A model generated the notes under the pieces. The model ran no database searches. It was given only the letters and a program-made list of their open reading frames with translations, and was not told where the DNA came from. 64,000 nt of DNA from an uncultured delta proteobacterium (GTDB lineage: Bacteria > Myxococcota_A > Polyangia > Fen-1088). The translations under genes were made by a program, and so were the position numbers. The DNA lies in contig CAWCMR010000009.1 in NCBI GenBank assembly GCA_963796685.1, positions 224,001-288,000 on the forward strand, written 5' to 3'. This document shows, piece by piece, positions 3,838-56,544 of this stretch. Position 1 is the first letter of the stretch, and each line of letters starts with the position of its first letter.

Positions 3838-3868
3838 GACCTCTTGCTCCGTCCTCCCGGCTTGCAAA

Positions 3869-18706: not shown

Positions 18707-22378
<3,672 letters not shown>

Positions 22379-22396
22379 TCGGGAAGGAGCTAGGTC

Positions 22397-26242
<3,846 letters not shown>

Positions 26243-26283
26243 CCCAAGGTTGAGTTTTCCCCAATACAGTGTCAGAAGGTGCC

Positions 26284-27300
26284 ATGGCAAATCATGGCGC
26301 CGCCTTCGATCCAGAGGAGTTCACGCGTGCGGCACGCGAGCTCGGCGCCCGGCTGCGCGAGTCGCGCCGCTTGCTGCTGATCGTCGCCCTCGTCATCGTG
26401 GGAGGCATCGGGATCTACGGCTCGTATTACCAAGTGGAGCCCGACGAGATTGGACTGGTCACGCGTTTTGGCCGTTTCGTACGCACCAGCAACCCCGGCC
26501 CGCACGGCAAGTTCCCCTTCGGCATCGAGCGCGTGCAGAAGGTGCCGGTGCAGCGCCAGCTCAAGCAGGAGTTCGGCTTCCGCACGGCGCGCGCGGACAT
26601 CCAAAGCTCGTTCCGCAAGGACGAGAAGACCAGCGCCGAGTCCGACATGCTGACCGGCGACCTCAACGTGGCCACGGTCGAGTGGATCGTGCAGTACAAG
26701 ATCTCGGACCCGTACAAGTACCTCTTCCGTGTGCGCGACACGGAGGAGACCTTCCGCCTCATGACCGAGGCCTCCATGCGCACCGTGGTGGGCGATCACA
26801 GCGTCACCGAGCTGCTCACCGTGGGCCGCGAAGCGATTGCGGCCAAGGCCAAGGAATTGCTCTCGAACCTGTGCAAGATCTACGACAACGGCATCGCCGT
26901 CCAGCAGCTCATTTTGCAGAGCGTGGATCCGCCTGAACCGGTGCGGCCGTCGTTCAACGAGGTCAACCAAGCCATCCAGGAACGCGAGCGTTCCATCAAC
27001 GAGGCCTGGGCCGAATACAACCAGGAGATCCCGCGCGCGCGCGGACTCGCCGAGCAGAAGATCCAGGCCGCCGAGGGCTACGCGGTCGACCGCGTGAACC
27101 GCGCCAAGGGCGACGCCCAGCGCTTCGTCGCACTCGAGGACCAGTACCGCAAGGCCCCCGAAGTGACCCGCTCGCGTATCTATCTCGAAACCATGGCGGC
27201 GGTGTTGCCCGCGGCCGGCAAGAAGCTGATTTTCGATGAGAAGGCCAAGGGCATCCTGCCCATGTTTCCTCTCGGTCCGGTCCAGGAGGTGAAGCCATGA
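26284..27300 (+). CDS. hflK: FtsH protease modulator HflK
   Basis: TM plus SPFH; MLTGDLN, VQYKISDP, VDPPEPV..SFNEV; followed by hflC. Confidence 0.9.
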   Translation: MANHGAAFDPEEFTRAARELGARLRESRRLLLIVALVIVGGIGIYGSYYQVEPDEIGLVTRFGRFVRTSNPGPHGKFPFGIERVQKVPVQRQLKQEFGFRTARADIQSSFRKDEKTSAESDMLTGDLNVATVEWIVQYKISDPYKYLFRVRDTEETFRLMTEASMRTVVGDHSVTELLTVGREAIAAKAKELLSNLCKIYDNGIAVQQLILQSVDPPEPVRPSFNEVNQAIQERERSINEAWAEYNQEIPRARGLAEQKIQAAEGYAVDRVNRAKGDAQRFVALEDQYRKAPEVTRSRIYLETMAAVLPAAGKKLIFDEKAKGILPMFPLGPVQEVKP

Positions 27301-28253
27301 AGACCCGGTCGGCCATCCTGGGCGGCGCGTTCGTCGTGCTCGGGCTCGTCACGCTGTCGTCGGCTCTCTACACGGTCTCCGAAACCGAGCAGGTGGTCAT
27401 CACCCAATTCGGCGAGCCCATGGGCGCGGCGGTCACGCAAGCCGGCTTGCACCTGAAAGTACCCTTCGCCCAGGAAGCCAATTTCTTCGACAAGCGCTGG
27501 CTGGAATGGAACGGCAACACCAACCAGGTTCCCACCCGCGACAAGAAGTACATCGGCGTCGAGACCTACGCGCGCTGGCGCATCGACAACCCCTTGCTGT
27601 TCTTTCAGCGCCTGAAAGACGAGCGCGGCGCCCAGTCGCGCCTGGACGACATCATCGACGGCGAGACCCGCAACGTCATCGCCAGCCACGACCTCATCGA
27701 GGTCGTGCGCACCACCAACCGTGAGTTCGAAAAGGGCGAAGAGGTCGAGGACATCATGGAAGCCGAGTCCATGCGCCAGATCAAGCTCGGCCGCGACAAG
27801 CTGACCCGGCTCATCCTGGCGCAAGTTTCCCACATCGTGCCGGACTACGGCATCGAGCTGGTCGACGTCCAGATCCAGCGGGTCAACTACATCGCGAGCG
27901 TGCAGGCCAAGGTCTTCGACCGCATGATCTCCGAGCGCAAGCGCATCGCCGACCGCTACCGCTCGGAGGGGCAAGGCAAGAGCGCCGAGATCCGCGGCAA
28001 GAAGGAGCGCGAGCTGAAGGTGATCGAATCCGAGGCCTACCGCAAGACCCAGGAGAGCATGGGCAAGGCCGATGCGGAGGCCGCGGCCATCTACGCCGAG
28101 GCGTACAATCGCAATCGCGAGCTCTACCGTTTCCTCAAGACCATGGAGACGTACCACAGCGCCATCGACAAGGACAGTTGGCTCGTCTTGTCGACCACCA
28201 CCGATGTCTTCCGCTACCTGCAATCGCAGAACGCCACGGGCGGAGGGAAATAG
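27297..28253 (+). CDS. hflC: FtsH protease modulator HflC
   Basis: TM plus SPFH; PTRDKKYI, RMISER.RIA..YRSEG; ATGA overlap with hflK. Confidence 0.92.
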   Translation: MKTRSAILGGAFVVLGLVTLSSALYTVSETEQVVITQFGEPMGAAVTQAGLHLKVPFAQEANFFDKRWLEWNGNTNQVPTRDKKYIGVETYARWRIDNPLLFFQRLKDERGAQSRLDDIIDGETRNVIASHDLIEVVRTTNREFEKGEEVEDIMEAESMRQIKLGRDKLTRLILAQVSHIVPDYGIELVDVQIQRVNYIASVQAKVFDRMISERKRIADRYRSEGQGKSAEIRGKKERELKVIESEAYRKTQESMGKADAEAAAIYAEAYNRNRELYRFLKTMETYHSAIDKDSWLVLSTTTDVFRYLQSQNATGGGK

Positions 28254-28294
28254 GGCGGACCAACCCGCCAGCACGCAACCATCGCGTAACGACG

Positions 28295-28858
28295 ATGCCG
28301 AGGCCCGAACCCGATCCCTACGCCATCCTGGGCGTCACCCGCAACGCCACCGAAGGCGAGATTCGCGCCGCCTACCACGCGCTGGTGGCCAAGTACCATC
28401 CCGACAAGCACCAGGGCAATCCGCTCGAAGGCTTGGCCGCCGAGAAGATGGCGGAGGTGAATCGCGCCTACGAGATCCTTTCCGATCCGGCGCGCCGGTC
28501 GGCCTACGACAGCGGCCAGGGCACCTGGCCGCGCGCGGCAACAAGCGGCTTCCCCGGTGGCGGCGGTCCTGGCTCCGTGGCCCGCAAACCCATGCGTTGG
28601 GTGCAGATCCTCGCGCTGCTCATGCTGCTGCCCCTCGCTTTGCGCTTCGGTGTCTTCATCGTACGCTTGCTCGTCCGCCTGGTGCGCGGCGCGGTCGAAG
28701 TATCGGCCGTGGCGCGCGGAACGCCCCTCGGCGCGGTGATCGTGCTGGCGACGATGGCGGTGCTCGCATTCGTCCTGATTCGCCGTAGGCGGACCAAGCG
28801 CCGCAAGGTAGGTGCCGGTGCCGGTGCCGGTGCCGGTGCCGGCCCCGGCAAGCCCTGA
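28295..28858 (+). CDS. DnaJ (J-domain) membrane protein
   Basis: DPYAILGV..YHPDK..VNRAYEILSDP; C-terminal TMs; (GGTGCC)n tail. Confidence 0.88.
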   Translation: MPRPEPDPYAILGVTRNATEGEIRAAYHALVAKYHPDKHQGNPLEGLAAEKMAEVNRAYEILSDPARRSAYDSGQGTWPRAATSGFPGGGGPGSVARKPMRWVQILALLMLLPLALRFGVFIVRLLVRLVRGAVEVSAVARGTPLGAVIVLATMAVLAFVLIRRRRTKRRKVGAGAGAGAGAGPGKP

Positions 28859-28945
28859 TCGGCGCGGGAAAGTGCCCTGCGCCGCGCCGGTTTGGAGTAA
28901 AATCGGACGCTCTATGTTTGCGATCACGAACGCGGGAGGCGTGCG

Positions 28946-29935
28946 ATGAGTTTTCTTGCCAGGCAGCTACGCTCCGTCATCCAGTGGGAGAATCCCGATC
29001 CAAGCATTCTGTTCCAGCGCTGGACCGATAGCGGCGACGAGATCAAGAACGCCTCCAAGCTCATCGTCGGCCCCGGCCAAGGTTGCCTGTTCGTGTACGA
29101 GGGTCGCGTCGAGGCGGTCTACACCGAGGAAGGACTGTTCGAGCTGCGCACCGCCAACAAGCCCTTCTTCACCACCCTGACGAGGTTCATGCAGGGGTTC
29201 AAGAGCGAGCACAAGGTCGGCCTCTACTTCTTCCGCACGGCCAAGCTCCTGAACCTGAAATGGGGCACCGAATCCGCCATCAAATACCAGGATCCCGAGT
29301 ACAAGTTCCCGGTCGGCCTGCGCGCGTTCGGCAACTACTCCATGCGCATCGTCGAGCCGCGCTCCTTCTTCCAGCAAATCGTCGGCGGCGCCCAGGTCTT
29401 TCTCGTGGAAAATATCCGCGAGCCGCTCAATGCGCGCCTGGTGCAACCGCTGACGGATTTCTTCGCCGAGGCCGGCTACACGTACACGCAGATCGATCCC
29501 AACCGCGAGGAGATCGCGACGGCCCTGTCAGCCAAGCTCAGGCACGAGCTCACCCAGCTGGGATTCCTGCTCGAGGACTTCCGCATCCAGGGCACGAGCT
29601 TCGACGACGATACCATGCGCAGGATCAACCGCATCGCCGACGTCAGCGCCGAGGCCCGGGCCGCGAGCGCCGCGGGAGTCAGCTACGCGCAACTCCAACA
29701 GCTCGAAGCGCTACGGGAAGCGGCCAAGAACCAAGGCTCGGGTGGCGCCGGGATGGCCATGGCCGTGGGCATGGGCATGGCGGGGGCAATCCTGCCCCCG
29801 GCGGCGGGTCAAGCGGGTCCGCCGCCCGATGATGTCACGGCCAAGCTCGTGAAGCTCAAGTCCCTGCTCGACCAGCAGCTCATCACCCAGGCCGAACACG
29901 ACGCCAAGAAGAGGGAGATTCTTTCCGCGCTCTGA
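28946..29935 (+). CDS. SPFH/Band7 YdjI-like protein with C-terminal SHOCT
   Basis: VIQW, SKLIV..GQ, KWGT, LRAFG.YS; C-terminal KLKSLLDQQLITQAEHDAKKREIL. Confidence 0.85.
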   Translation: MSFLARQLRSVIQWENPDPSILFQRWTDSGDEIKNASKLIVGPGQGCLFVYEGRVEAVYTEEGLFELRTANKPFFTTLTRFMQGFKSEHKVGLYFFRTAKLLNLKWGTESAIKYQDPEYKFPVGLRAFGNYSMRIVEPRSFFQQIVGGAQVFLVENIREPLNARLVQPLTDFFAEAGYTYTQIDPNREEIATALSAKLRHELTQLGFLLEDFRIQGTSFDDDTMRRINRIADVSAEARAASAAGVSYAQLQQLEALREAAKNQGSGGAGMAMAVGMGMAGAILPPAAGQAGPPPDDVTAKLVKLKSLLDQQLITQAEHDAKKREILSAL

Positions 29936-29947
29936 CCGCAGTCCTGG

Positions 29948-30712
29948 TCAGCCGCGCGTGCTCGCGAAGAAGTTGCCTGCGATCGCCTCCCATGTCGCGT
30001 CGTCGATGTGGGCAGAAAGATCGTTCGACAGGACACCGCCGTCGGCCATGGTCGGCGCTGCCTGACGCCCGCCCAGGGCCTCGGCGAACCTGTCCACCTC
30101 GTCGCGGAACCAGGCCCGGATGGCAGAGCCACTGGTCAGGTGCCCGCGCTCGCCGCTGAAGTTGACCCCCTCCAGCCAAACCACCCAGCCGGCGCCATAG
30201 GGGCTGTCCTTGATCAAGGCGGGCTTTGCCGTGACCTCACGGTTGACGTCCGCGACGACGCCGCTGACGGGCGATTTCACCTCCAGGCGTCGCTGCTCGC
30301 GGCACAGGGTGAAGAGCGTCTGCCCCTGCTCGACCCGCGAGCCTATCGGCAGCGGCTCGACCGAAGCGACCGCTCCCAAGGCGGCGATGGCGAGCGCGTC
30401 CGCTCCAACCGTGGCCGAGCCAGGGGTTTCGGCCTTGGCCCACCCGTGCGCGCAGTGGACATAGAAGCTGGTCGGCGGGATGGTCAGGCCGTGGTATTGC
30501 GCCGCATTGTCGGCCTCGGCCATGAACCAGCGTCGCAGCCTGGGGCTGACCGCGATGGCGACGAGCGCCCCGACGATCATCAGAGGGATCAGTAGACGCA
30601 CGCCATAGGCCAGCCCCGCCAGCAGCGGGATGGCAGCGACAACCGCGATCGCCAGCCCCAAATAGAGCAGCGAATTCTTGGCCAATGTCTTTACGCTTTG
30701 AGAACGGGTCAT
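29948..30712 (-). CDS. Membrane-anchored GcvH-like protein lacking the lipoyl-lysine
   Basis: Two N-terminal TMs; HGWA, VGAD, SPVSGVV..VN, SPYGAGW; the ESVK position reads CREQ; TMADGG tail. Start ATG 30712 with GGAGG. Confidence 0.8.
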   Translation of the reverse strand: MTRSQSVKTLAKNSLLYLGLAIAVVAAIPLLAGLAYGVRLLIPLMIVGALVAIAVSPRLRRWFMAEADNAAQYHGLTIPPTSFYVHCAHGWAKAETPGSATVGADALAIAALGAVASVEPLPIGSRVEQGQTLFTLCREQRRLEVKSPVSGVVADVNREVTAKPALIKDSPYGAGWVVWLEGVNFSGERGHLTSGSAIRAWFRDEVDRFAEALGGRQAAPTMADGGVLSNDLSAHIDDATWEAIAGNFFASTRG

Positions 30713-30756
30713 CGCTACCTCCCGGTCGCCATTCGAGGCGCCTTGCAGTGAGTCCA

Positions 30757-30772
30757 AGCAAGCGCCGTACCA
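30757..30772 (-). promoter_or_regulatory. Putative sigma54 promoter (leftward)
   Basis: Minus strand TGGTACGGCGCTTGCT versus consensus TGGCACG-N4-TTGCW. Confidence 0.7.
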
Positions 30773-31106
30773 TCGGCCCCACGAATTCCGCTCCGCCTCC
30801 AGCAGCATCCCGGGACATCGTGATTTCAGGCGGATTCGCACGAGAATACCCGCAACGAGCGAAGCTTGGGCATGCCTGCCACCCCGGAGCGTTCCCTGAA
30901 CATGGGTGCTAGACCCATACCGTCAATGCTGTCTTTCTCGGCATTCCCGAAGGTGCGCCGTTGATTTTTTCCACACGGACCCTAACTATTTGAATTAAGA
31001 TACTTTTCGTTACCTGAATGGATGAATCGAGGGATCGGGACCATGAGCCATGTGGAAATCGTCGACAAGGCACGTGGATGTCAGACGACAGGACAAGCAC
31101 AAGGTG

Positions 31107-31123
31107 TTGGCTTCGTTCTTGCT
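31107..31123 (+). promoter_or_regulatory. Putative sigma54 promoter (rightward)
   Basis: TTGGCTTCGTTCTTGCT, GG-N10-GC, 40 bp upstream of ATG 31163. Confidence 0.65.
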
Positions 31124-31162
31124 GTTGCCAGTGATCACTTTCCAAGCAAGGTGAGGCACTCG

Positions 31163-31957
31163 ATGGCTCCAAGCAGCAAGAACTCGGCATTCACAAGTCC
31201 GGCTCGTCGTGCCGGCGCGCGCTCGTCTCTCGGCACGGTTCCAGCCGAAAGCAAGGAGTGCATCTGGATGAGCGCGGGAGTCCTTTCCTACCGGCTCTGC
31301 GAGCGCGAATTCGACTGCGAGCACTGCCTGCTCGACAAGGCCCTGCACGGCGGCGATTCGGAATCTGCGACGGCCTGGACACCGGGCGAATGGGGGCCAA
31401 GCGGATACCGGCTCTTTCCCCAGGATCGCCATTTCAGTCCGTCGCACACCTGGGTGCTCCCGATGGGCTCCGCTTCCGTGCGGCTGGGGGTCGACGCGCT
31501 CGTGGCGTGGCTGCTGTCCGAGACCACCGCGCTCGAGCTCCCGGCCGTGGGCACCTGGCTCGAACGGGGCGAGGTCGCCGCCACCCTGCACGCCAAGGGC
31601 GGCAAGTTGACGATTCCAGCCCCGATCTCGGGCAAGATCTCCGGCCACAACGAAGCCGCCCAAGGCTGTCCCGAGCTCGTCGTCTCGGCACCCTACGGCG
31701 CCGGTTGGCTCGTGGACATGACGGTGGAGCCCGGCCGCAAGAACAAGCAGCTCGCGCAGCTTCTGTGCGGCCCCGACATGGAGAAGCTGAGCCGGTCCCA
31801 CTTGCACGGCTTTCACCGCCGCACCGACGACCTGCTCGCCGCGCGCCCGGCCCGTGTGGGCGCGACCATGGCCGACGGTGGGAAGGCCTTGACCGACCCG
31901 CGTGCCATGCTCGGCCACGCCCGCTACCTCAAACTCGTGCAGGAGCTCCTGACCTGA
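31163..31957 (+). CDS. Soluble GcvH-like protein with N-terminal 4-Cys motif, lacking the canonical lipoyl-lysine
   Basis: CIWMSAGVLSYRLCEREFDCEHC; HTWV, LGVD, APISG, APYGAGWL; TMADGG. Confidence 0.8.
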   Translation: MAPSSKNSAFTSPARRAGARSSLGTVPAESKECIWMSAGVLSYRLCEREFDCEHCLLDKALHGGDSESATAWTPGEWGPSGYRLFPQDRHFSPSHTWVLPMGSASVRLGVDALVAWLLSETTALELPAVGTWLERGEVAATLHAKGGKLTIPAPISGKISGHNEAAQGCPELVVSAPYGAGWLVDMTVEPGRKNKQLAQLLCGPDMEKLSRSHLHGFHRRTDDLLAARPARVGATMADGGKALTDPRAMLGHARYLKLVQELLT

Positions 31958-32061
31958 AACCACCGCCCAAGCCGCCCGACCCTTCCGCGACCGAGGAACC
32001 CTCCGGGCGACAGGGCGAAGCTCCACCTGCGACACGTTCGCCATCCATCTTCACGAACAAC

Positions 32062-33681
32062 GTGATCGTCGGCTTCTTCCATTCCGCGAGCGCGCGGCTG
32101 CTGGCGCCGCTGCTGCTGACCATCGTCGTCGTCTTCTCGATCTACGCCTTCCTGAGCTTTCGCGCCATCTCGCAAGAGTGGAACGAGTCCGTGTACTCGT
32201 ACGCGCGCAAGTTTGGCGAGCTGGCCAAGCGCGCCACCAACCACGGCATGCTGGTCAATCGCAGCGAGGACGTGCAGTACGTGGTCCAATTGTTGGCGGA
32301 CAGCCCGGGCGTCGTGGCCCTGAACATCTACAACAAACAGGGCGTCGTGGCGTTCTCCCACGATCCCGGCAAGGTCGGCCAGAAGGTGGACCTGCAGGCG
32401 GAGGCCTGCGTGGTCTGCCACGACAAGACGGCACCGCTCAAGGCCGTCAACACCGAGAAGCGCACGCGGATCTACCGCAACAACGCCGGCCGCCGCGTGT
32501 TCGGCGTCATCGAGCCCATCGAGAATGAACCGCGCTGTGCGCGCAGCGGCTGCCACGCGCCGGTCAGCGAGCAATCCATCCTCGGCATCATGGACGTGCA
32601 GATGTCGCTGGAACCGCTCGACCTCGCGCTGGCGGACGCGCGCAGGCGCTCGCTGTGGCTGACCATCGCGGTCATGCTCATGGTCAGCGCGGGCACCATC
32701 GCCTTCGTGTACCGCATCGTGCGCCGGCCGGTCATGAAGCTGGTCGAAGGCACGCAGCGCATCGCCCAGGGCGATCTGGACACGCGCATCGACGTGACCT
32801 CGCGCGACGAGCTCGGCGTGCTGGCCTCGGCCTTCAACGGCATGACCCAGGATCTGCACAAGGCGCGCGCAGAGGCCAACCATTGGTCGCAGCAGCTCGA
32901 ACAAAAGGTCGTCGAGAAGACCGCCGAGCTGGGGCGCATCCAGCGCCAGGTGCTGCTCATGGAGAAGATGGCCTCGCTCGGCAAGCTGGCCGCCACCGTG
33001 GCCCACGAGCTCAACAACCCGCTCGGCGGAATCCTGAACTACGCCAAGCTGGTCGAGCGCGTGGTGCGCGACGAGACCCTCGACGAGGCGGGCAAGCGCG
33101 AGGTGCAACGCTACCTCACCGCCATCCAGCAGGAATCGCGCCGCTCGGGAGACATCGTGCGCAACCTGCTGCTCTTCGCACGTCCGTCGCAGGCCAGCTT
33201 CGCGCCCGTGCACCTGTCCCAGATCATCGAGCGCAGCCTCCTGCTCATCCAGCACCGCATGACCATGGCTTCCATCGTCTGCGAATACCAGCCGACCGAG
33301 CAGGACGACCTGCTCACCTGCGACCCCGATCAAATCCAGCAATTGCTCGTGGCCCTGCTGGTGAACGCCATCGAGGCCATGGAGGACGGCGGGACCTTGC
33401 GACTCACCGTCACGCCGAGCGCCGAGGCCATGCAATGGGTCGTGGCCGACACCGGCGTGGGCATCCCGGAAGACGCCATCGGCCACATCTTCGAGCCGTT
33501 CTTTTCCACCAAGGACAAGGAAAGCGGGGTGGGATTGGGCCTGGCCGTGGTCTATGGCATTGTACAAGGGCACCATGGCACCATCGATGTGACGTCGCAG
33601 CCGGGCAAGGGGACCAGTTTCACGATCCGCCTGCCCCGAAGCCCCAAGCCTCCCGACAGCCCCAGCAAGGAAACCGAGTAG
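32062..33681 (+). CDS. Sensor histidine kinase with periplasmic heme-c-type motifs, HAMP, HisKA and HATPase
   Basis: Two TMs flank ACVVCH and CARSGCH; AHELNNPL; NAIEA, DTGVGI, GLGL boxes. Start approximate. Confidence 0.9.
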   Translation: MIVGFFHSASARLLAPLLLTIVVVFSIYAFLSFRAISQEWNESVYSYARKFGELAKRATNHGMLVNRSEDVQYVVQLLADSPGVVALNIYNKQGVVAFSHDPGKVGQKVDLQAEACVVCHDKTAPLKAVNTEKRTRIYRNNAGRRVFGVIEPIENEPRCARSGCHAPVSEQSILGIMDVQMSLEPLDLALADARRRSLWLTIAVMLMVSAGTIAFVYRIVRRPVMKLVEGTQRIAQGDLDTRIDVTSRDELGVLASAFNGMTQDLHKARAEANHWSQQLEQKVVEKTAELGRIQRQVLLMEKMASLGKLAATVAHELNNPLGGILNYAKLVERVVRDETLDEAGKREVQRYLTAIQQESRRSGDIVRNLLLFARPSQASFAPVHLSQIIERSLLLIQHRMTMASIVCEYQPTEQDDLLTCDPDQIQQLLVALLVNAIEAMEDGGTLRLTVTPSAEAMQWVVADTGVGIPEDAIGHIFEPFFSTKDKESGVGLGLAVVYGIVQGHHGTIDVTSQPGKGTSFTIRLPRSPKPPDSPSKETE

Positions 33682-33682
33682 C

Positions 33683-35074
33683 ATGCCCCCACAACAAGCC
33701 AGCATCTTGATCGTCGACGACGAGCTCAGCGTCCGCGATTCCTTGCTGCACTGGTTTCGCAAGGATGGTTTCACCGTGGCCACGGCTGCCAGCGCCACCC
33801 TCGCCCTGCAAGCGCTGGAACAGAACCCGTACGACATCATCCTGCTCGACATCAAGATGCCCGGCATGGACGGCATGGAGCTGCAAACGCGCATCCACGC
33901 CTTGAATCCCAAGATCGTGGTCATCATGATGACGGCCTTCGCCTCGGTGGACACGGCCGTGCGCGCGCTCAAGCAAGGCGCCTTCGACTACGTCACCAAA
34001 CCCATCGATCCCGACGAGCTCAGCCACCTCGTCGCGCGTGCCCTCAAGGAGCGGCGGCTGGAGGACGAGAACTCGCAGCTCAAGGAAACCATCGCCGAGC
34101 TGTCGGCGGCGGATTTCGTCATCGGCGAGAGCCCGGCCATGCACAAGGTGATGGAGCTGATTCGCCAAGTGGCGCAGACCAACGCCACCGTGATGATCCG
34201 GGGCGAAAGCGGAACCGGCAAGGAGCTGGTCGCGCGCACCATCCACGCCAACAGCGCACGCAAATACTTTCCCATCGTGCCCATCAACTGCGGCGCCCTG
34301 CCCGACAGCCTGCTCGAAAGCGAGCTCTTCGGACACGAGAAGGGCGCCTTCACCGGCGCCAACTTCCGGCGCAAGGGCCGCCTGGAAATGGCCGACGGCG
34401 GAACCCTGTTTCTCGACGAGATCGGCACCATCACGCCCAAGATGCAGGTCGATCTCCTGCGCGCCATCGAAACCAGCGAGATCACCCGGCTCGGCGGCTC
34501 GCGCCCGGTGCAGGTGAATTTCCGCATCATCTGCGCCACCAACGAAGACTTGGAGAAGCTGGTGGCGGAGGGAAAGTTCCGCCAGGATCTCTATTACCGC
34601 ATCAACGTGTTCAGCATCGCCTTGCCGGCCTTGCGACAGCGGCGCGAGGACATTCCCACCCTGGCCCGCCACTTCATGGGCAAGCTGGCCATGGAAATGG
34701 ACAAGCGCGTGTCCGACATCAGCCCCGAAGCCAACCACAAGCTCATGGCCTACGACTGGCCCGGCAACGTGCGCGAGCTGGCCAACGCCATCGAACGCGC
34801 CATGGTGGTGAGCCGGACCGGCGTGATCCGCCCCGAGGATCTGCCCTTCGCCGTGCCCGAGGCACCGGCCGCGTCCGTGCCCGGCGGCGACTCCCTGGCC
34901 GACATGGAGAAGGCCCACATCGCGGTCATCCTCGGCCGCACGCGCTGGAACATCACCCAGGCCGCCGATCTGCTGCAGATCGACCGCGCCACGCTGTACA
35001 ACAAGATCAAGCGCTACGGCCTGCAACGTGCCGAGGGCGGCGAGACCGACGTAAGCGGTTCCAAACCGACGTGA
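33683..35074 (+). CDS. Sigma54-dependent response regulator (NtrC/AtoC family)
   Basis: REC (IVDDE, DIKMPG), GESGTGKE, GAFTGA, WPGNVREL, Fis-type HTH. Confidence 0.96.
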   Translation: MPPQQASILIVDDELSVRDSLLHWFRKDGFTVATAASATLALQALEQNPYDIILLDIKMPGMDGMELQTRIHALNPKIVVIMMTAFASVDTAVRALKQGAFDYVTKPIDPDELSHLVARALKERRLEDENSQLKETIAELSAADFVIGESPAMHKVMELIRQVAQTNATVMIRGESGTGKELVARTIHANSARKYFPIVPINCGALPDSLLESELFGHEKGAFTGANFRRKGRLEMADGGTLFLDEIGTITPKMQVDLLRAIETSEITRLGGSRPVQVNFRIICATNEDLEKLVAEGKFRQDLYYRINVFSIALPALRQRREDIPTLARHFMGKLAMEMDKRVSDISPEANHKLMAYDWPGNVRELANAIERAMVVSRTGVIRPEDLPFAVPEAPAASVPGGDSLADMEKAHIAVILGRTRWNITQAADLLQIDRATLYNKIKRYGLQRAEGGETDVSGSKPT

Positions 35075-35084
35075 GCCCGCGGCC

Positions 35085-35630
35085 GTGTCGGTGGTCCAGC
35101 TTGTCCCCATCTGCCTGCCGAGCCAACCGTCTCTGCTCGATGATGTCGCCGCGCACATCGGCCGCGCCTTCTCGGCGACCGTGACCGTGCGTCCCCTGCG
35201 CTTCGATCCCGAGCTCGCCTTCGACCGTTCGCGCGGCCAATACAACTCGACCGAGCTCCTGGCGAGCCTGCTCGACGAATCGTCAGGCAGCGAGGACCGC
35301 GTTCTCGGCATCGCGGGGGTCGACCTGTTCATCCCCATCCTCACCTACGTCTTCGGCGAGGCGCAGCTCTCTGGCCGAGCGGCCGTCGTCTCCACCTACC
35401 GCCTGGATAGCGCCCTTTACGGGTTGCCCGCCGACCCCCTCTTGCTGCTCGACCGGCTGGCCAAGGAGGCTGTCCACGAGCTTGGCCACACCTGCGGGCT
35501 CGTGCACTGCAACCAATCCATGTGCGTGATGCGAAGCTCGACCTACGTCGAGGACATCGATCTCAAGCCCGTCCGGTTCTGCCCCGCCTGCAACCAGAGG
35601 ATCCGCGCCGCAACCCACGCTCGAGGTTAG
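35085..35630 (+). CDS. Archaemetzincin family Zn metalloprotease
   Basis: R.QY, YVFGEA, KEAVHELGHTCGLVHC....CVM..S....D.K...FC..C. Confidence 0.92.
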   Translation: MSVVQLVPICLPSQPSLLDDVAAHIGRAFSATVTVRPLRFDPELAFDRSRGQYNSTELLASLLDESSGSEDRVLGIAGVDLFIPILTYVFGEAQLSGRAAVVSTYRLDSALYGLPADPLLLLDRLAKEAVHELGHTCGLVHCNQSMCVMRSSTYVEDIDLKPVRFCPACNQRIRAATHARG

Positions 35631-36931: not shown

Positions 36932-36994
36932 GCGATGCGTGGGGGTGTGATCCATTCGCGACTTGGCGGGAATAAAGGCAAGCATGAGGCCTTG

Positions 36995-37624
36995 ATGCCC
37001 TTTCTTATCTCCACCGACTCCCCTGCCTTCCATTCCCGCCCCGTGGCCGCCTTGCCTGCCGACGGTCGCCCCGGTATGGTTCCAAGGGTGGGAGGCAAGA
37101 GCGAGAGGGAGTCGCGCCTGCGCCAGTTGGTCGACAAGCATGTGGGCCACGTGGCGCGAATTCTGCGCAATGCCGGCACCAGCGAGGCCGACATCGACGA
37201 TGACGTCCAACGCGTCTTCATCGCCCTTTCCAACCGCCTGGACGACGTGCGTGTCGGGGCGGAGAAGAGCTTCCTGTTCCAAACCGCGCTGCACATGGCG
37301 GCGCATTCGCGGCGAACGGCAGCACGACGGCGGGAGATTCTCACGGACCGGACGCCCGAGATGGTCGATTCCTTCGCCGGTCCGGAGGAGATGGCCAACC
37401 AAAAGCAAGTGCGGCGAACCCTCGACCGGATTCTGAATCAAATGGAAACCGAGCTTCGTGTCGTGTTCGCGCTGTACGAGTTCGAGGAGATGACGACCGC
37501 GGAAATCAGCTCGGTTCTCGAAATTCCCCGTGGCACCGTGGCTTCCCGCCTGCGCAGGGCGCGGGTCGAGTTCCGCGAGCGCGTCTCCAGGATGGAGAGC
37601 CTTTCGAAGACCGAGGTAGGCTGA
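36995..37624 (+). CDS. ECF RNA polymerase sigma factor (cassette 2)
   Basis: DDDVQRVF, SFLFQTA, FALYEFEEMT..EIS..L.IP.GTVASRLRRAR. Confidence 0.92.
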   Translation: MPFLISTDSPAFHSRPVAALPADGRPGMVPRVGGKSERESRLRQLVDKHVGHVARILRNAGTSEADIDDDVQRVFIALSNRLDDVRVGAEKSFLFQTALHMAAHSRRTAARRREILTDRTPEMVDSFAGPEEMANQKQVRRTLDRILNQMETELRVVFALYEFEEMTTAEISSVLEIPRGTVASRLRRARVEFRERVSRMESLSKTEVG

Positions 37625-38325
37625 TGGACGAACCAGAACGTTTGCGCTATCAGACTGGTTCCGAGCTCGAACGAGCCCTGCTGCGCGAGGGCCAGGCCTA
37701 CCGCGGTCCCGACAACCTGCGCGCCGACACCTTGGCAGCGCTCGGCTTGGCGAGTTCGGCCGGGCTTGCGACCGGTGGATTCCTGGCATGGCTGTCGGCC
37801 AAGACCTGGGCCACCAAGGTGGCGCTGACCCTGGCCACGGCGTCCGTGCTGGCAGGGATCCCGGTGGGCTACCTCGCCTTTCGCCAAGCCCCCGTCCCCG
37901 CGCCTCGACCATCCGAGCCCCCCGCGTCCGCGTCCGGAGGCGCCGCGCCTTCCGGTCGCCCGGCCAACGTGGAGCCGCCCATCGAGGCGCCCCCGGCAAG
38001 TGCCCCGGCTGCGGCGTCCCCTCCGTTGGCCTCCCACCCTGCGGGCAGCCCGACGAGCTCGGCTCTTCGCGCTGAGCTGGCGGCCCTCGATGCCGCGCGA
38101 TCCACCCTCGCCAGCGGCGACCCCGAAGGGGCACTGTCATTCCTGAACGCCTATTTCCGCACCTTCCCGCGTGGCCGCCTCCGTCCCGAGGCCGAGGTTC
38201 TGCGCATCGACGCCTTGGCCAAGGGGGGTCGCATGGACGCCGCGCAGAGGTACGCTCGGGAGTTCCTGCGCCGCCGCCCGAACAGTGTGCTCGCGGCGCG
38301 TGTGCAAGCCATCGCTGGACCCTGA
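37624..38325 (+). CDS. Putative anti-sigma factor with TM, Pro linker and TPR-like C-terminus
   Basis: TGATG overlap; ELAALDAAR..L..GD..GAL..L..Y...FPRG.L..EA..LRIDAL. Confidence 0.75.
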   Translation: MDEPERLRYQTGSELERALLREGQAYRGPDNLRADTLAALGLASSAGLATGGFLAWLSAKTWATKVALTLATASVLAGIPVGYLAFRQAPVPAPRPSEPPASASGGAAPSGRPANVEPPIEAPPASAPAAASPPLASHPAGSPTSSALRAELAALDAARSTLASGDPEGALSFLNAYFRTFPRGRLRPEAEVLRIDALAKGGRMDAAQRYAREFLRRRPNSVLAARVQAIAGP

Positions 38326-52941: not shown

Positions 52942-54451
52942 ATGACAACACGTCCTTCCTTCGCCAAGTCCCTTTCCAGTGTTCTGGCCGTCCTGGCTCT
53001 TCAAGGTTGGTCCGCGACGGCCTCCGCAGAAGACCAGCCCACGGCGACCAAGGACCAAGCGGTTGCCGCGTCCGAACCAGCCCCCGCGAAAGTCACGTCC
53101 GTGACTACACCACCGACACCGGCTGCCCCGGCGGCGACGGCAGCTTCTACGAAGGTTGCCGCCCCGAGCGCGGATGGCCAAGGAGGCCAGCCCGCCCCGG
53201 ATTCGCCAGCCGTTACCGAGATTGGCATCCAGCGCTTGCCCGGATCGGCCTACCCCGAGCCGCAGACCCGAGGGCTCATGTACGGTTCGCTGTGGCTGAC
53301 CTTCCACGGGCTGCAATGGCCCTACATGCCTGCGACGGCCAAGGGCTCACGCTTCGTGCTCGGGTTGTCCGGGTGGGGGTGGGTGGACACCTCGTACGAG
53401 AAGTTCGGCCCGTGGACCCCTCCCAATGTCTCGATTGCCGCGCTCGGCCAGAGCAATGTCAAATATTGGATCCAGCAGTCGCGCATGCTGCTGCGATTGA
53501 CGCCCACCTACGCACTCGACGATGGCTGGTTCGTCCAGGGCCAAGCCGAGCTCGTCGCCACCGAGGATCAAAGCGCCAATCGCTCGGCGATCGGCGGCGC
53601 CGATACCGACGATCTATGGTTACGCATCGGCCAGTGGAACACGTGGGACTTCCAGGTCGGTCGTTTCGAGGGTTGGGAGGTTTTTCACCTCGGCATGGGT
53701 CTCGACCAGAACACCTTCGAGCGACAAGGAGCAAACGGTATCTATGAGTCCGGCTCCTATCCCATCCAGTTCTATGGCCTTACGGACAACCAATTCCGTC
53801 CCCCGGGCGCTGCCGGCAACATGGCCGTGCACTACTATCCCTTTCGGTTCCTCCGTTTCGAGCTCCTCGGCACTGCCGGAAGCCTGGGCTCGACTCCCAT
53901 CCTGGCGACGCGTCCGGTGGCCATCCTCGACTTCGGCTGGCTCAAGCTCAAGGGCGGCGTGGAATATCAACGCTTGACTAACCAGCAGGCGAGCCAAGCC
54001 CTGTTCAAGAAGACCTCCAAAGGCGTCGGAGGGGCGGTTCAGTTCGTCTTCCAGCCGCACATCGAGTTTGGGCTCAACGCCGCCCAAGGAACCGTCTGGA
54101 GCATCGATGCCTCCGGAAGGGAAGACCTCAAGGGTAGTCTCACACGGACCAGCTTTGGCGGATTCGCCAACGTCTCGAACGGTAGTATCAAGCACCCACT
54201 CATCTTCGGTGTGGGAGGGCTCTACACGCACACCGAGGACCAGAACAACATCCTTGGCGATGGCGTGGTGGACAAATACTGGCTCTTCCAGGGTTTTGCC
54301 GCCGTCCAATACGTCGCTTTCCAACAGACTGTATATCAAGCTCGTAGGTGGCTACTCGAGGGGCAATTGGCTCACGGCTGGGCACACTCCTCTCGTTCAA
54401 TGGGATGACGAGGTGTACAGCGTCCGGCTCCGGTTCTCGTTCTATTTCTAG
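52942..54451 (+). CDS. Putative outer-membrane porin (apparent +1 frameshift near 54328)
   Basis: Signal peptide; many amphipathic strands; the shifted frame continues LYIKLVGGYSRG...YSVRLRFSFYF*, a beta-signal ending. Confidence 0.68.
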
Positions 54452-55028
54452 TTATTTCGCCCGCCTCGCCGAGAGGCCACCAGCAGGCAACGGAGGATTG
54501 GACTATGGTTTCGATGTCGGAAAAGCGACCATCGGCCATCCTGCGTTGCGCTTTCCCGTGGCTCGCGCTCGCCTTCACCTGGCCCCCGAGGACGGCCGAT
54601 CACCCGCCTGCTCGCCCCTCCGACGAAACAGCGTCAGGCTTCCCCACGCTTCGACGAACGTGCCGTCCACGGGTAAAGCACGTATAACACAATACGTCGA
54701 CGCTTCAGGGCCTAGTCAGGCAATCACTTGATTCGCCGGATGGGGTACTTTCGCCATGCCCACTTCTTCAAGCATGTGAGCACGATGCGGCCTCAGGGAT
54801 CGCGATCATCATCCAATCTTGCCTCAATTTGACCACGCTCCCGACGCCTCATTGTGTCACCCGGGCAACCTACGCTGCGACGATGCCGTCAGGATGCTCG
54901 CATGCGTTTCCTTGCTAGACGCACTGTTCTTTCATACTTGACAAGCAGAGCCATATCGTCGAGTCTACACGCGTTGTAGCCGCGGTCCCCGGCCCTGGGA
55001 TCGGAAGTTCGCCGCAAGGAGAAACTAG

Positions 55029-55754
55029 ATGACACGAACGATAAGGTTACTGTTAGGACTGCTCGTCTCGCTGATCTGCTTCAGCAGCCCCGCTCAGGTG
55101 TTCGCAGCCACGGGTGCTCAGTATGGAACACCGCCGAGCGGCTGCTCAGGCAATCCCCCTAACAACACGGCATATCTCTGGACCGGGACCGGTTACAGCG
55201 GCACTTGCTACATGATCAACGTCGACAACTACTCTGACACGTGGGCCAGCTGGGACGCATCGACTGGGTTCCCGAATGATTCCATAAAGTCAGTTAAGGT
55301 GGGTGCGAACGCTCACCTCGTCCTCTTCTGGAATGGCTTCTACACGCAAGACAACGGCCAGCCCTTTCTGATTCCGGGGTCTCAGTGCACGTCCAACTGT
55401 AGTGACTTGGGAAGCTGGAAAAACCAAGTCTCGGCCGTACGCATCCAGACATTTGTCACATGCGGTGGTAGCGAGAAACTAGCTCTCTTCGCAGATCCCA
55501 ATTGGGGTGGAGACTGCACGATGCTTCCATTCCCTAACTACTACACCGATCCCGTTGCAATGGGTTTTCGCAACGATACCGTAACCGGCCTAATTAATAC
55601 GAGCGCACAGAACACCGCTTGCATCTTTGCTAATGTAGGCTTCGGTAGTCCGTTGACCACATTTGGTCCGGGATATTTGAACTCGAATCTCACGGGTCTT
55701 GGTTGGAATGACTTAGTGTCCGCCGTCAAGCTTACGGCTCAGTGCTGGAGGTAG
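55029..55754 (+). CDS. Secreted beta/gamma-crystallin-like (Protein S-type) protein
   Basis: Signal peptide; four Greek-key motifs (FPNDSIKSVKV, WKNQVSAVRI, FRNDTVTGL, WNDLVSAVKL); RBS AAGGAG. Confidence 0.75.
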   Translation: MTRTIRLLLGLLVSLICFSSPAQVFAATGAQYGTPPSGCSGNPPNNTAYLWTGTGYSGTCYMINVDNYSDTWASWDASTGFPNDSIKSVKVGANAHLVLFWNGFYTQDNGQPFLIPGSQCTSNCSDLGSWKNQVSAVRIQTFVTCGGSEKLALFADPNWGGDCTMLPFPNYYTDPVAMGFRNDTVTGLINTSAQNTACIFANVGFGSPLTTFGPGYLNSNLTGLGWNDLVSAVKLTAQCWR

Positions 55755-55852
55755 AACCCTCTCTCCGCTTTGGATAGAGGCTCTAACCGGGGACCTGTTC
55801 AGACGTCTGCAAGCAATGGTCGGATAGGTCCCTGCGGTCTTAGTATGGAGGA

Positions 55853-56464
55853 ATGACGATGGGACGAGGACGCGGGCCACTGTATTCCATTCTATTGGTT
55901 CCTCTTCTGTTGTTGTTGTTGTTCGTCGCCAGCTACTTAGGTCTCAAGTCTCGCGGGAAAGCTGATGTAACGACGCCATCGAGCGATTCCGAATCCTCGT
56001 CAGTCAAGTCGCCGGGTTCTGGCTTCCCGGCCAGGGGGCCAAGGTTAGCACTGCCAATGATCAATCCGAGTAGCCCGCCAAAGGAATCGGACCAGAAATC
56101 TGGCGAAGCTGAGCTCGGTCGATCAGCGCGTGAAGAAGCTGCCAGTCAGGAGCGTGCGCTCATGGCCAAGACCTGGAACATGAGCGACGAGCAATATCAG
56201 GCCTTCGAGGCAGCCGCCACCGCGGTGCCCCATTGGGAACGAAGGGCTGTATATGAGCGGTTCCTTAGGGGCGAGATAGATCGAGAGCAACTCAACAAAG
56301 AACTTCCCGAGGCAGATGCCCGCGACAGCAAGCAGCTTCGTGAGGCGCTAGGAACACACTATCAGGAGTATGAGTTGATGCGCGGTCACTTCGCCGAGGC
56401 CGGGCTGGACCACAAGCCGTTCGAGCCACCGACGAGCGACCCAGTGTCACCGCAGGGACCGTAG
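55853..56464 (+). CDS. Hypothetical protein with N-terminal membrane anchor
   Basis: GGAGG RBS; single TM, Ser/Pro linker, helical C-terminus; no recognised family. Confidence 0.6.
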   Translation: MTMGRGRGPLYSILLVPLLLLLLFVASYLGLKSRGKADVTTPSSDSESSSVKSPGSGFPARGPRLALPMINPSSPPKESDQKSGEAELGRSAREEAASQERALMAKTWNMSDEQYQAFEAAATAVPHWERRAVYERFLRGEIDREQLNKELPEADARDSKQLREALGTHYQEYELMRGHFAEAGLDHKPFEPPTSDPVSPQGP

Positions 56465-56544
56465 TTTGGTAGATGTTTATGAACAGGAATGACTCGGACG
56501 TCGCACCCAGGTCGGAGGTGCAAGATCCGCACTTACACTAGCTA

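Follow-up and report, generated by a model that had tools for sequence, protein, structure and literature searches.

Several described systems resemble parts of the locus reported here. Its H-fold proteins share their fold with the glycine cleavage H protein, GcvH, and with GcvH-L of Streptococcus pyogenes (PDB 5a35, which is also among our Foldseek matches), and they invite comparison with LbpA of the sulfur-oxidizing Hdr systems; GcvH-L and LbpA are lipoylated. A second point of reference is provided by HybA/HybB of hydrogenase 2 and HmcB/HmcC of the Desulfovibrio Hmc complex, in that the operon which partners our genes encodes a four-cluster-type ferredoxin (Fer4_11) and an NrfD-family protein. 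The signaling genes have counterparts in the NtrC-family two-component systems (AtoS/AtoC and ZraS/ZraR being the best NCBIfam models), and the sensor domain of the kinase is to be set beside those of the Geobacter chemoreceptors GSU0582/GSU0935 (PDB 3b47, 3b42), which bind c-type heme. Finally, the archaemetzincins, such as AmzA of Methanopyrus kandleri (PDB 2X7M), are recognized by a metal-ligand motif whose canonical form is given in at least one account as HEXXHXXGX3CX4CXMX17CXXC (PMC13325395).

Here, we examined a group of genes in a 64,000-nucleotide window (the whole stretch of DNA that was analyzed) from an uncultured delta proteobacterium, which the original prediction had read as a self-contained signaling module. 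That reading did not survive. At unsplit loci in other genomes, these genes are joined by a third GcvH-like gene and an Fe-S/NrfD quinone module, and since the corresponding genes of this genome lie on another contig, C20, the window holds one half, the regulatory one, of an eight-gene module that is split here, and not a self-contained signaling circuit. The eight genes encode three GcvH-fold proteins without the lipoyl lysine (A, B, and C), an Fe-S protein, an NrfD-like protein, a sensor kinase, a sigma-54 activator, and an archaemetzincin. We consider it fairly likely that together they constitute a redox-sensing, autoregulated sigma-54 regulon which installs the quinone module, with the H-fold proteins as cytoplasmic adaptors and the protease acting on them, the roles of adaptors and protease being those that we infer.

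Results

Gene content of the window

All five ORFs of the region (5/5) have Pfam support and are real genes. The genes for B and C lie back to back and diverge, and those for the kinase, the activator, and the archaemetzincin are found 3′ of C. The features are as follows.

29948..30712, minus strand: gcvH-like gene B; 254 aa, with a two-helix N-terminal membrane anchor, a cytoplasmic GcvH-fold domain, and a C-terminal PTMADGG tail
30758..30772, minus strand: sigma-54 type -24/-12 box of B, TGGTACGGCGCTTGC; 1 mismatch, B start codon 46 nt downstream
30922..30999: conserved divergent intergenic block, GTCAATGC..GCATTCCC, then CGTTGATTTTTTC..TAACTATTTGAATTAA, from the alignment of the window with loci L001 and L002
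31108..31122, plus strand: sigma-54 type -24/-12 box of C, TGGCTTCGTTCTTGC; 2 mismatches, ATG at 31163 41 nt downstream
31163..31957, plus strand: gcvH-like gene C; 264 aa (229 aa from 31268), soluble, with a long helix and a GATMADGG tail
32062..33681, plus strand: sensor histidine kinase; TM segment, periplasmic PAS/PDC-like sensor, TM segment, HAMP, HisKA, HATPase_c
33683..35074, plus strand: NtrC-type sigma-54 activator; receiver, AAA+ domain with GAFTGA, Fis-type HTH
35085..35630, plus strand: archaemetzincin-family zinc protease; 181 aa, motif HELGHTCGLVHC..C.M..CPAC

The start of B was refined to 30712 on the minus strand; this gives 254 aa, as in most of its 62 homologues, and a GGGAGG lies 5 nt ahead of the ATG. 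C begins either at 31163 (264 aa) or at 31268 (229 aa), both lengths being present among 80 homologues, and the kinase probably begins at the GTG at 32062. The activator starts 1 nt past the kinase stop, and the archaemetzincin starts 10 nt past the activator stop.

Conservation of the gene set and its split arrangement

Among loci with sufficient contig reach, the same genes were found in Myxococcota, in Eisenbacteria, and in metagenome-assembled genomes (MAGs) labeled Planctomycetota and Bacteroidota, in several gene orders. The association of the GcvH-like genes with kinase, activator, and archaemetzincin, on whose conservation in other genomes the original prediction had been made to depend, is therefore borne out by the survey of gene neighborhoods. 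GcvH-like genes, kinase, activator, and protease occur together again in L001, L002, L004, L006, and L007, while L003, L005, L008, and L010 are consistent with this within their contig reach. Five further Myxococcota genomes display four gene orders (L099 and L105 have the same one), with Fe-S and NrfD genes in all of them. Every unsplit locus has the same constant company, namely, the third GcvH-like gene (A) and genes for a HybA/HmcB-like Fe-S protein and an NrfD-like membrane protein. The archaemetzincin gene follows the activator gene in 11 of the 11 loci with enough reach, and the genes which intervene among module members are unrelated to one another. Some of the MAG phylum labels are doubtful, because L007 and L008 are 96 to 99% identical but are labeled as different phyla.

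In this genome, the gene for A, the Fe-S gene, and the gene for an NrfD-cytochrome c7 protein stand on contig C20 behind a sigma-54 box of their own, and the L001 and L002 genomes show the same split. Across the module, A has one TM segment, B has one or two, and C has a four-cysteine N terminus, with an xxDGG tail on all three. The Fe-S protein is of the HybA/HmcB-like 4Fe-4S type, and the NrfD-like quinone-site protein is fused to a c7-type cytochrome in this genome. HmcB/HmcC and HybA/HybB are the best NCBIfam matches of the Fe-S and NrfD proteins of L006, but these fall under the equivalog cutoffs (HmcB, 324.6 versus 420; HmcC, 373.6 versus 550; HybA, 216.3 versus 263; HybB type, 263.3 versus 450). 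Unlike the situation in Hmc and Hyb, no hydrogenase, HmcA, HmcE, or HmcF gene adjoins, and three H-fold proteins are present alongside instead; this genome departs further from those systems in its NrfD-c7-type cytochrome fusion and its Tat-less Fe-S protein. A Tat signal is present in the Fe-S subunits from L004, L005, L007/L008, L010, L100, and L102 and absent from the distal subunit of this genome, and because of this absence, the membrane side of the latter is uncertain. The gene set is widely conserved and undescribed; a literature search, short of full texts, found no description of it.

This arrangement bears on what the GcvH-like proteins do. Conceivably, they belong to the Fe-S/NrfD complex as structural or assembly subunits, serving for cytoplasmic docking and taking no part in signaling, in which case the two-component system would just regulate the operon and the protease would be a maturation factor. 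The gene for A is always found directly ahead of the Fe-S and NrfD genes, even when the module is split, and such a role would suit the membrane anchors of A and B as well as the position of B, which likewise adjoins Fe-S/NrfD genes in L099, L100, and L105. However, B and C keep with the kinase and activator, and not with the complex, in three split genomes (which, as close kin, we count as one event). Moreover, NrfD-type subunits are not known to contain a cofactor able to hand electrons to a cytoplasmic partner, and this also speaks against a purely structural role. We regard such a role as somewhat unlikely and prefer the reading in which the H-fold proteins are adaptors within a redox-sensing regulon.

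Fold, lipoyl site, and tail of the H-fold proteins

Pfam GCV_H matched B at 62 bits and C at 54 bits, whereas the true gcvH of this genome reaches 149.9 bits (PF01597). Both proteins miss the NCBIfam cutoffs for true GcvH (NF002270, 59.8 and 59.6 versus 117; TIGR00527, 48.8 and 50.4 versus 115.85). The AF2 model of C (pLDDT of 82) has a GcvH core, and Foldseek matched it to the GcvH structures 3hgb, 1onl, and 3ab9 with a TM score of ~0.9 and an rmsd of 1.3 to 1.5 Å. A complex prediction for B (residues 60 to 254) with C gave a score of 0.00, which is no answer and counts neither way.

When B and C were aligned to Mycobacterium tuberculosis GcvH and to the genome's true GcvH, the lipoyl lysine column was found to be occupied by Q in B (CREQ) and by G in C (HAKG), exactly as had been claimed from inspection by eye. 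A lysine occurs in this column in none of the 54 C-type rows and in 10 of the 50 B-type rows. In the family alignments, the hairpin of the A, B, and C groups has neither a conserved lysine nor a conserved cysteine. As far as the sequences go, neither the lipoyl site nor the positions next to it show a conserved lysine, which rules the H-fold proteins out as general lipoate carriers. Lipoylation of C at the neighboring lysine (position -1) was considered and rejected, a lysine being present there in just 23 of 54 rows. As had also been noted, gcvT, gcvP, and lipoate-ligase-type genes are absent from the window; gcvT, gcvH, and gcvP are together on contig C13, and the only BPL_LplA_LipB match of the genome is on contig C15. 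A, B, and C differ from GcvH, GcvH-L, and LbpA in lacking the lipoyl lysine, in showing no association with gcvT, gcvP, or a lipoate ligase, and in possessing extra N-terminal anchors or a cysteine motif and an extra helical tail with DGG; against LbpA of the Hdr systems in particular, neither the lysine nor a nearby ligase is found. The annotation “glycine cleavage system H protein,” which is attached throughout this large lysine-less, DGG-tailed family, is wrong for function.

The original prediction had further described an extra C-terminal TMADGG helix region in both proteins. The tail is indeed shared, but DGG is its sole invariant part across the three paralogue groups, and the AF2 model shows it as a loop that joins helices and not as a helix. 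Save for two low-complexity ORFs, the motif G..x.DGG is confined to A, B, and C from these loci. The claim that one of the two proteins is membrane anchored agrees with the hydropathy profiles, B being hydrophobic at residues 10 to 60 and C having no such stretch. The N terminus of C carries the four-cysteine motif C-x-W-M..Y-R-L-C-x5-C-x2-C, of which C11, C17, and C20 (numbered on the 229-aa form) show no variation in 54 rows; the fourth cysteine lies upstream of residue 1 of that form and is visible in the alignment of the longer forms. Pfam (E <= 10) returned no match for residues 1 to 60 of three C-type proteins, and a search for longer homologues of C returned no fused forms, although the latter is weak evidence. 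Fused DGG-tailed H-fold forms turned up elsewhere, in P0194 (by profile search) and in L104. That related DGG-tailed H-fold domains are fused to or adjoin cytoplasmic redox enzymes counts against the adaptor reading, since an electron-transfer role fits this at least as well as signaling does.

The same data make improbable a second alternative, namely, that the H-fold proteins are swinging-arm carriers which, by means of a noncanonical residue or another prosthetic group, transfer electrons or else an acyl or sulfur group on the cytoplasmic side. Such carriers are hard to reconcile with a hairpin that conserves neither lysine nor cysteine in any of the three groups, with the lack of lipoate ligase, gcvT, and gcvP genes in the window, and with scores that are all far under the true-GcvH cutoffs. 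Yet the idea is not without attraction: distant relatives that have the DGG tail but no lysine occur in L104 as fusions with a 2Fe-2S/4Fe-4S ferredoxin module, next to NuoE- and NuoF-like genes; in P0194, such relatives are tripled ahead of an FAD-oxidase/CCG protein; the invariant cysteine motif of C might bind a metal or accommodate an Fe-S cluster; and a minority of the B-type rows (10/50) do have K in the lipoyl column. On balance, we retain the adaptor reading for the proteins of the present module.

Kinase, activator, and archaemetzincin

The kinase has the Pfam domains HAMP, HisKA, and HATPase_c, and hydropathy places TM segments on either side of its sensor domain. The two periplasmic motifs that had been noted in this protein, CVVCH (CxxCH) and CARSGCH (CxxxxCH), proved to be invariant in 12 of 12 orthologous kinases. 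In Foldseek, the sensor of the AF2 model (pLDDT of 80) matched the sensors of WalK, KinD, and CitA and the periplasmic sensor domains of GSU0935/GSU0582. With its periplasmic PAS/PDC-like fold and its CxxCH, the domain fits the c-type heme PAS-like sensors on fold and motif; a sequence search of the PDB with it returned only a chance heme-motif match (E of 9.8). The periplasmic PAS-like fold is common to it and the Geobacter chemoreceptors, but the match is weak (TM score of 0.31 to 0.36), and the protein in the window has a second motif, CxxxxCH, and a histidine kinase output as opposed to that of a chemoreceptor.

The activator matched Response_reg (112 bits), Sigma54_activat (238.7 bits), and HTH_8 (49.5 bits), and its translation contains GAFTGA; the combination of a receiver, an AAA+ domain with GAFTGA, and HTH_8 identifies it as NtrC type, in line with the original prediction. 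The domains of kinase and activator and the -24/-12 promoters are shared with the NtrC-family systems, as probably is autoregulation. Nevertheless, both proteins are far under the equivalog cutoffs (AtoS, 224.5 versus 646; AtoC, 472.6 versus 714), and a heme-motif PAS-like sensor, together with H-fold proteins and an archaemetzincin in the operon, distinguishes the present system.

The zinc protease, also predicted, matched Peptidase_M54 at 75.6 bits and NCBIfam archmetzin at 157.4 (cutoff, 145), and no signal peptide was seen. Like AmzA, it has the four-cysteine motif HEXXHXXGX3CX4CXM..CXXC. The metal ligands are all present in 11 of 11 orthologues, but with a spacer of 16 residues versus the canonical 17, and this spacer, the bacterial host, and the fixed position of the gene 3′ of a sigma-54 activator set the protein apart from the AmzA-type archaemetzincins. 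An established role of archaemetzincins in bacteria was not found in a literature search that stopped short of full texts.

Sigma-54 boxes and regulation

A GG-N10-GC promoter had been proposed for each of the divergent units, and -24/-12 boxes were found ahead of B in 3 of 3 loci and ahead of C in 3 of 3 loci (window, L001, and L002). The orthologues of the B box lie at 7521 in L001 and at 7504 in L002, and those of the C box lie at 7946 and 7894, respectively. Boxes also precede A in L086, the locus of this genome, and in L004, L006, L008, L010, L106, and L107, L005 being without one. Window-wide, box matches are not enriched (85 versus 77 expected). At a background of 0.32 per kb per strand, each 150-nt upstream stretch nevertheless contains one. 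The GG-N10-GC pattern, its likeness to TGGCAC-N5-TTGC, its fitting distance, and its retention in orthologues mark these boxes as putative sigma-54 promoters at the level of sequence, and rpoN is present in the genome. A look at sequencing runs brought up none from RNA, and all shares were at most 0.19. The idea that the adjacency is incidental, with two stray GcvH paralogues that happen to lie beside a housekeeping protease and a two-component system unrelated to them, is so improbable that we reject it. The chance frequency of sigma-54-like boxes across the window might be cited in its favor, but it is contradicted by a gene set that recurs in distant lineages and outlasts several rearrangements and by boxes that are kept at orthologous positions.

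Autoregulation of the module is plausible, because both units in the window have conserved sigma-54 boxes, and the block at 30922..30999 may contain candidate activator and IHF-type sites. A crude search of the intergenic regions of the window, L001, and L002 and of three distal A-operon upstream regions yielded no shared activator-binding motif, that is, no exact inverted repeat in at least 3 regions, no 9-mer in at least 4, and no 7- or 8-mer in at least 5. None of the 43 activator-domain matches of the genome is on contig C20, which counts in favor of the regulon reading. With that many matches, the assignment of the distal operon to this activator, which we infer, rests on synteny in other genomes.

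Discussion

In the redox-sensing regulon that we favor, the kinase would read the periplasmic redox state, or a heme ligand, by way of c-type heme and would phosphorylate the activator. The activator would then open three sigma-54 promoters, namely, those that drive its own operon, B, and the distal operon, with the result that a quinone-linked periplasmic electron-transfer module is installed. The H-fold proteins, without lipoate and at the cytoplasmic face of the membrane, would act as adaptors tying this module to the signaling proteins, and the cytoplasmic protease would mature or remove one of them. The DGG tail that they share would be the obvious candidate for the element that the protease recognizes.

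A more specific, albeit unlikely, possibility is that the lysine-less DGG-tailed H-fold is a novel type of protease-gated signaling adaptor. A, B, and C would then report the state of the quinone module, which lacks a catalytic subunit, to the activator, and cleavage or trimming by the archaemetzincin, possibly at the DGG tail, would set or reset the switch. If true, this would be the first function for the bacterial archaemetzincins and for the large H-protein-like family, which comprises 1026 representative clusters at E <= 1e-30. If the heme-motif kinase does sense periplasmic redox, the module would represent a respiratory control circuit that is widespread among soil and sediment bacteria and has so far gone undescribed. 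The split arrangement parts the companions of the kinase (B and C) from the companion of the quinone module (A) and so offers a genetic means of finding out which components communicate with each other.

The archaemetzincin is here fixed in an operon with defined candidate partners. In a sample of 301 genomes from one phylum, Peptidase_M54 was present in all 9 of the 9 genomes with a full-length C-type gene, versus 70 of the 301 overall.

A conserved eight-gene set

The five genes at 29948-35630 are genuine. By the intergenic gaps as called, C and the genes for sensor kinase, activator and protease are packed into a single tight rightward unit, with B as a one-gene unit running divergently; B and C encode GcvH-fold (H-fold) proteins. 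B has the length of most of its 62 homologues, and both possible lengths of C are found among its 80.

Genes and sigma-54 type promoter-like boxes of the locus
30712..29948, minus strand: B, 254 aa; begins MTRSQ, GGGAGG ahead of the start
30772..30758, minus strand: box of B, TGGTACGGCGCTTGC, 46 nt ahead of the B start
31108..31122, plus strand: box of C, TGGCTTCGTTCTTGC, 41 nt ahead of the ATG at 31163
31163..31957, plus strand: C, 264 aa, or 229 aa if the start is 31268
32062..33681, plus strand: sensor kinase; start most likely the GTG at 32062
33683..35074, plus strand: sigma-54 activator; start 1 nt past the kinase stop
35085..35630, plus strand: archaemetzincin; start 10 nt past the activator stop

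The original prediction read these genes as one autoregulated circuit and would fail if the association were not conserved in other genomes. The association is conserved, and the set is larger, including a third H-fold gene (A) and genes for a Fer4_11 iron-sulfur protein and an NrfD-family membrane protein. Searching species genomes with the C family and then by tblastn gave loci in Myxococcota-type MAGs (L001, L002 and L003), in MAGs labelled Bacteroidota (L004), Planctomycetota (L005) and Omnitrophota (L008), and in Eisenbacteria (L006, L007 and L010). The kinase comes after the H-fold genes in every locus whose contig runs on, the activator is next in all but L003 and L005 (where the contig ends), and the archaemetzincin stands behind the activator in L001, L002, L004, L006 and L007; in L010 the contig ends straight after the activator. 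L004-L010 contain A, B and C, with the Fer4_11 and NrfD genes between A and B; the best NCBIfam matches of this pair are HmcB/HmcC and HybA/HybB, at scores under their cut-offs. When 301 genomes of the same phylum as the window were scanned with a profile, full-length C-type genes turned up in about 9. Five of these loci (L099-L102 and L105) hold the complete set of eight in four different orders and orientations (the order in L099 and L105 is identical), and the genes filling the gaps among them are not related to one another. Peptidase_M54 is present in 9/9 genomes with a full-length C-type gene versus 70/301 overall. Given that L007 and L008 share 96-99% protein identity over their common genes despite their Eisenbacteria and Omnitrophota labels, and that L004 and L007 are likewise close, the spread over phyla suggested by MAG labels is soft; one of the L007/L008 bins is probably mislabelled or contaminated.

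A full-text literature search found no description of the eight-gene set. Each component family is known, and regulation of this kind is familiar. The way the genes are combined, the H-fold family that lacks the lysine and has a DGG tail, and the bacterial setting of the archaemetzincin are undescribed.

H-fold proteins distinct from GcvH

B and C match Pfam GCV_H at 62 and 54 bits, and an AF2 model of C (pLDDT 82) superposes on solved H-proteins with a TM score of about 0.9 and an rmsd of 1.3-1.5 Å. Neither is a GcvH: against NCBIfam cut-offs of 116-117 bits, both reach about 60. As originally predicted, the lipoyl lysine is missing: aligned to Mycobacterium tuberculosis GcvH and the genome's own GcvH, B has Q (CREQ) and C has G (HAKG) at this position. 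Across the families the column is K in 0/54 C-type and 10/50 B-type rows, and the lysine one position ahead of it in C is kept in just 23/54, so lipoylation cannot be the conserved function. The predicted absence of glycine cleavage and lipoate ligase genes from the window also held; contig C13 carries the true gcvT-gcvH-gcvP operon, and a gene of the lipoate ligase type is found on C15. Besides the true gcvH, B and C, the genome holds a single further GCV_H match, the fourth in all, on contig C20; this is A.

Beyond the H-fold core, the proteins have kept a C-terminal extension consisting of a long helix, a G-x-x-x-x-D-G-G loop and two short helices. The shared TMADGG region had been described as helical; the common extension is present, but TMADGG lies in the loop of the AF2 model and DGG alone is invariant. 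This DGG tail, the only family-specific element common to A, B and C, is a candidate recognition site. Membrane anchoring of one protein is likewise supported: residues 10-60 of B are hydrophobic and read as two putative membrane helices, and the Arg and Lys on either side of this stretch would, by the positive-inside rule, place the H-fold domain in the cytoplasm. No membrane segment was found in C. C instead has an N-terminal motif, C-x-W-M..Y-R-L-C-x5-C-x2-C, with three cysteines invariant across 54 rows; it has no Pfam match and was modelled at low confidence.

The H-fold family comprises 1026 representative clusters at E <= 1e-30, and the 150 best matches of its profile all exceed 199 bits, mostly across the whole profile. 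Thermodesulfobacteriota are commonest in an Atlas cluster of 1046 members, and source names, where given, read "glycine cleavage system H protein." Distant lysine-less, DGG-tailed domains occur in a different context in L104 (7023-15399, genome G003), which lacks the kinase, activator and protease; there, one H-fold domain follows Fer2_4 and Fer4 domains in a fusion, another carries a cysteine motif, and NuoE-like, NuoF-like, HATPase, [FeFe]-hydrogenase-like and PHP genes follow. P0194, a 1391-aa protein from a MAG named Anaerolineae by NCBI, combines three GCV_H domains with FAD-linked oxidase, 4Fe-4S dicluster and two CCG domains; none of its aligned domains has K at the lipoyl position.

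Sensor kinase, activator and protease

In the kinase, two membrane segments enclose a domain of about 160 residues. The CxxCH and CxxxxCH motifs noted in this periplasmic domain are invariant in 12/12 orthologues, at identities as low as 34%. An AF2 model of the domain (pLDDT 80) matches the extracytoplasmic PAS/PDC sensors WalK, KinD, CitA and DctB. Its match to the GSU0935 and GSU0582 periplasmic sensor domains of Geobacter, which bind c-type haem, is weaker. The activator is of the expected NtrC type, with receiver, AAA+ (GAFTGA) and HTH_8 domains. The predicted archaemetzincin scores 157.4 against the NCBIfam archaemetzincin cut-off of 145. Every ligand of the canonical motif, as quoted in PMC13325395, is present, and the spacer is 16 residues in 11/11 orthologues versus 17 in the motif so quoted. 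The genome has a second, weaker Peptidase_M54 match (50 bits) on contig C26 (23769-24224, minus strand).

Promoter boxes and the distal operon

Each unit had been assigned its own GG-N10-GC promoter. Box matches with at most two mismatches number 85 in the window versus 77 expected, and the B and C boxes alone are little proof. With GG and GC fixed, however, the background is 0.32 per kb per strand; each 150-nt stretch upstream of B and C contains one such box, and both boxes recur at orthologous places in L001 and L002. The genome encodes rpoN. The sole perfect TGGCAC-N5-TTGC match in the window, TGGCACCAGAGTTGC (3786-3800, minus strand), lies at the 5' end of the gene (ORF 2701-3867, minus strand) for a 4Fe-4S membrane protein of the Fer4_5 type; this gene may be another sigma-54 target.

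The remaining three genes lie at L086 on contig C20.

Features of the distal A operon, contig C20
Box of A: TGGCTCCCCTCTTGC, 62 nt ahead of A's ATG
A: 230 aa, one membrane helix, GATAADGG tail
About 7100-7876, after A: Fer4_11 protein without a Tat signal
After the Fer4_11 gene: NrfD protein fused to a cytochrome c7 domain

The split arrangement has three separate boxes (B, C unit and A operon). The module is split in the same way in the L001 and L002 genomes, and both have boxes ahead of their A operons. None of the genome's 43 activator-domain matches is on C20, so that, given the synteny in other loci, the activator in the window is the obvious candidate to regulate the distal operon. In L004, L005, L007, L008, L010, L100 and L102 the iron-sulfur subunit carries a twin-arginine signal (RRxF[LF]K); in L086, L099, L101 and L105 it lacks one, the first cluster motif standing at the very start, and in this set the NrfD C-terminus holds 3-6 CxxCH motifs (counted in L099 and L101).

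A possible redox-responsive regulon

We consider it rather probable that the set is a redox-sensing kinase/activator regulon with a quinone module, and hold the individual roles with far less confidence. The putative c-haem sensor kinase would sense periplasmic redox state or a haem ligand and activate the sigma-54 activator, which would switch on B, the operon that encodes the activator itself and the distal operon of A, Fe-S and NrfD-cytochrome genes, installing a quinone-linked electron-transfer module. A, B and C may act as adaptors at the cytoplasmic membrane face, and the cytoplasmic archaemetzincin may mature or remove one of them.

As the main alternative, A, B and C would be nothing more than structural components of the quinone module. 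Less probably, they carry some non-canonical cofactor, a reading favored by the ferredoxin-H-fold fusion of L104 beside NuoE/NuoF-like and [FeFe]-hydrogenase-like genes and by the three H-fold domains ahead of the FAD-oxidase/CCG portion of P0194.

Other features of the window

Just upstream of B (26269-29935, plus strand) are genes for HflK-like, HflC-like, DnaJ-domain membrane and SPFH/SHOCT proteins, a block that is syntenic in L001; an SPFH homologue is also near the cassette in L010. Two very large adjoining genes (18707-26242, plus strand) encode a BcrAD/BadFG-type ATPase of 1223 aa that includes a DUF2229 "CoA enzyme activase" domain and a 1281-aa protein with Fer4_20, Pyr_redox_2 and Fer4 domains. 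An ECF-type sigma factor gene (Sigma70_r2/r4_2) followed by one for a probable anti-sigma membrane protein (36935-38325, plus strand) lies directly downstream of the gene for a 367-aa protein without a family match. At 54001-58057 the GC content falls to 0.56, and a DUF772 transposase-domain gene adjoins (56657-58057, minus strand).
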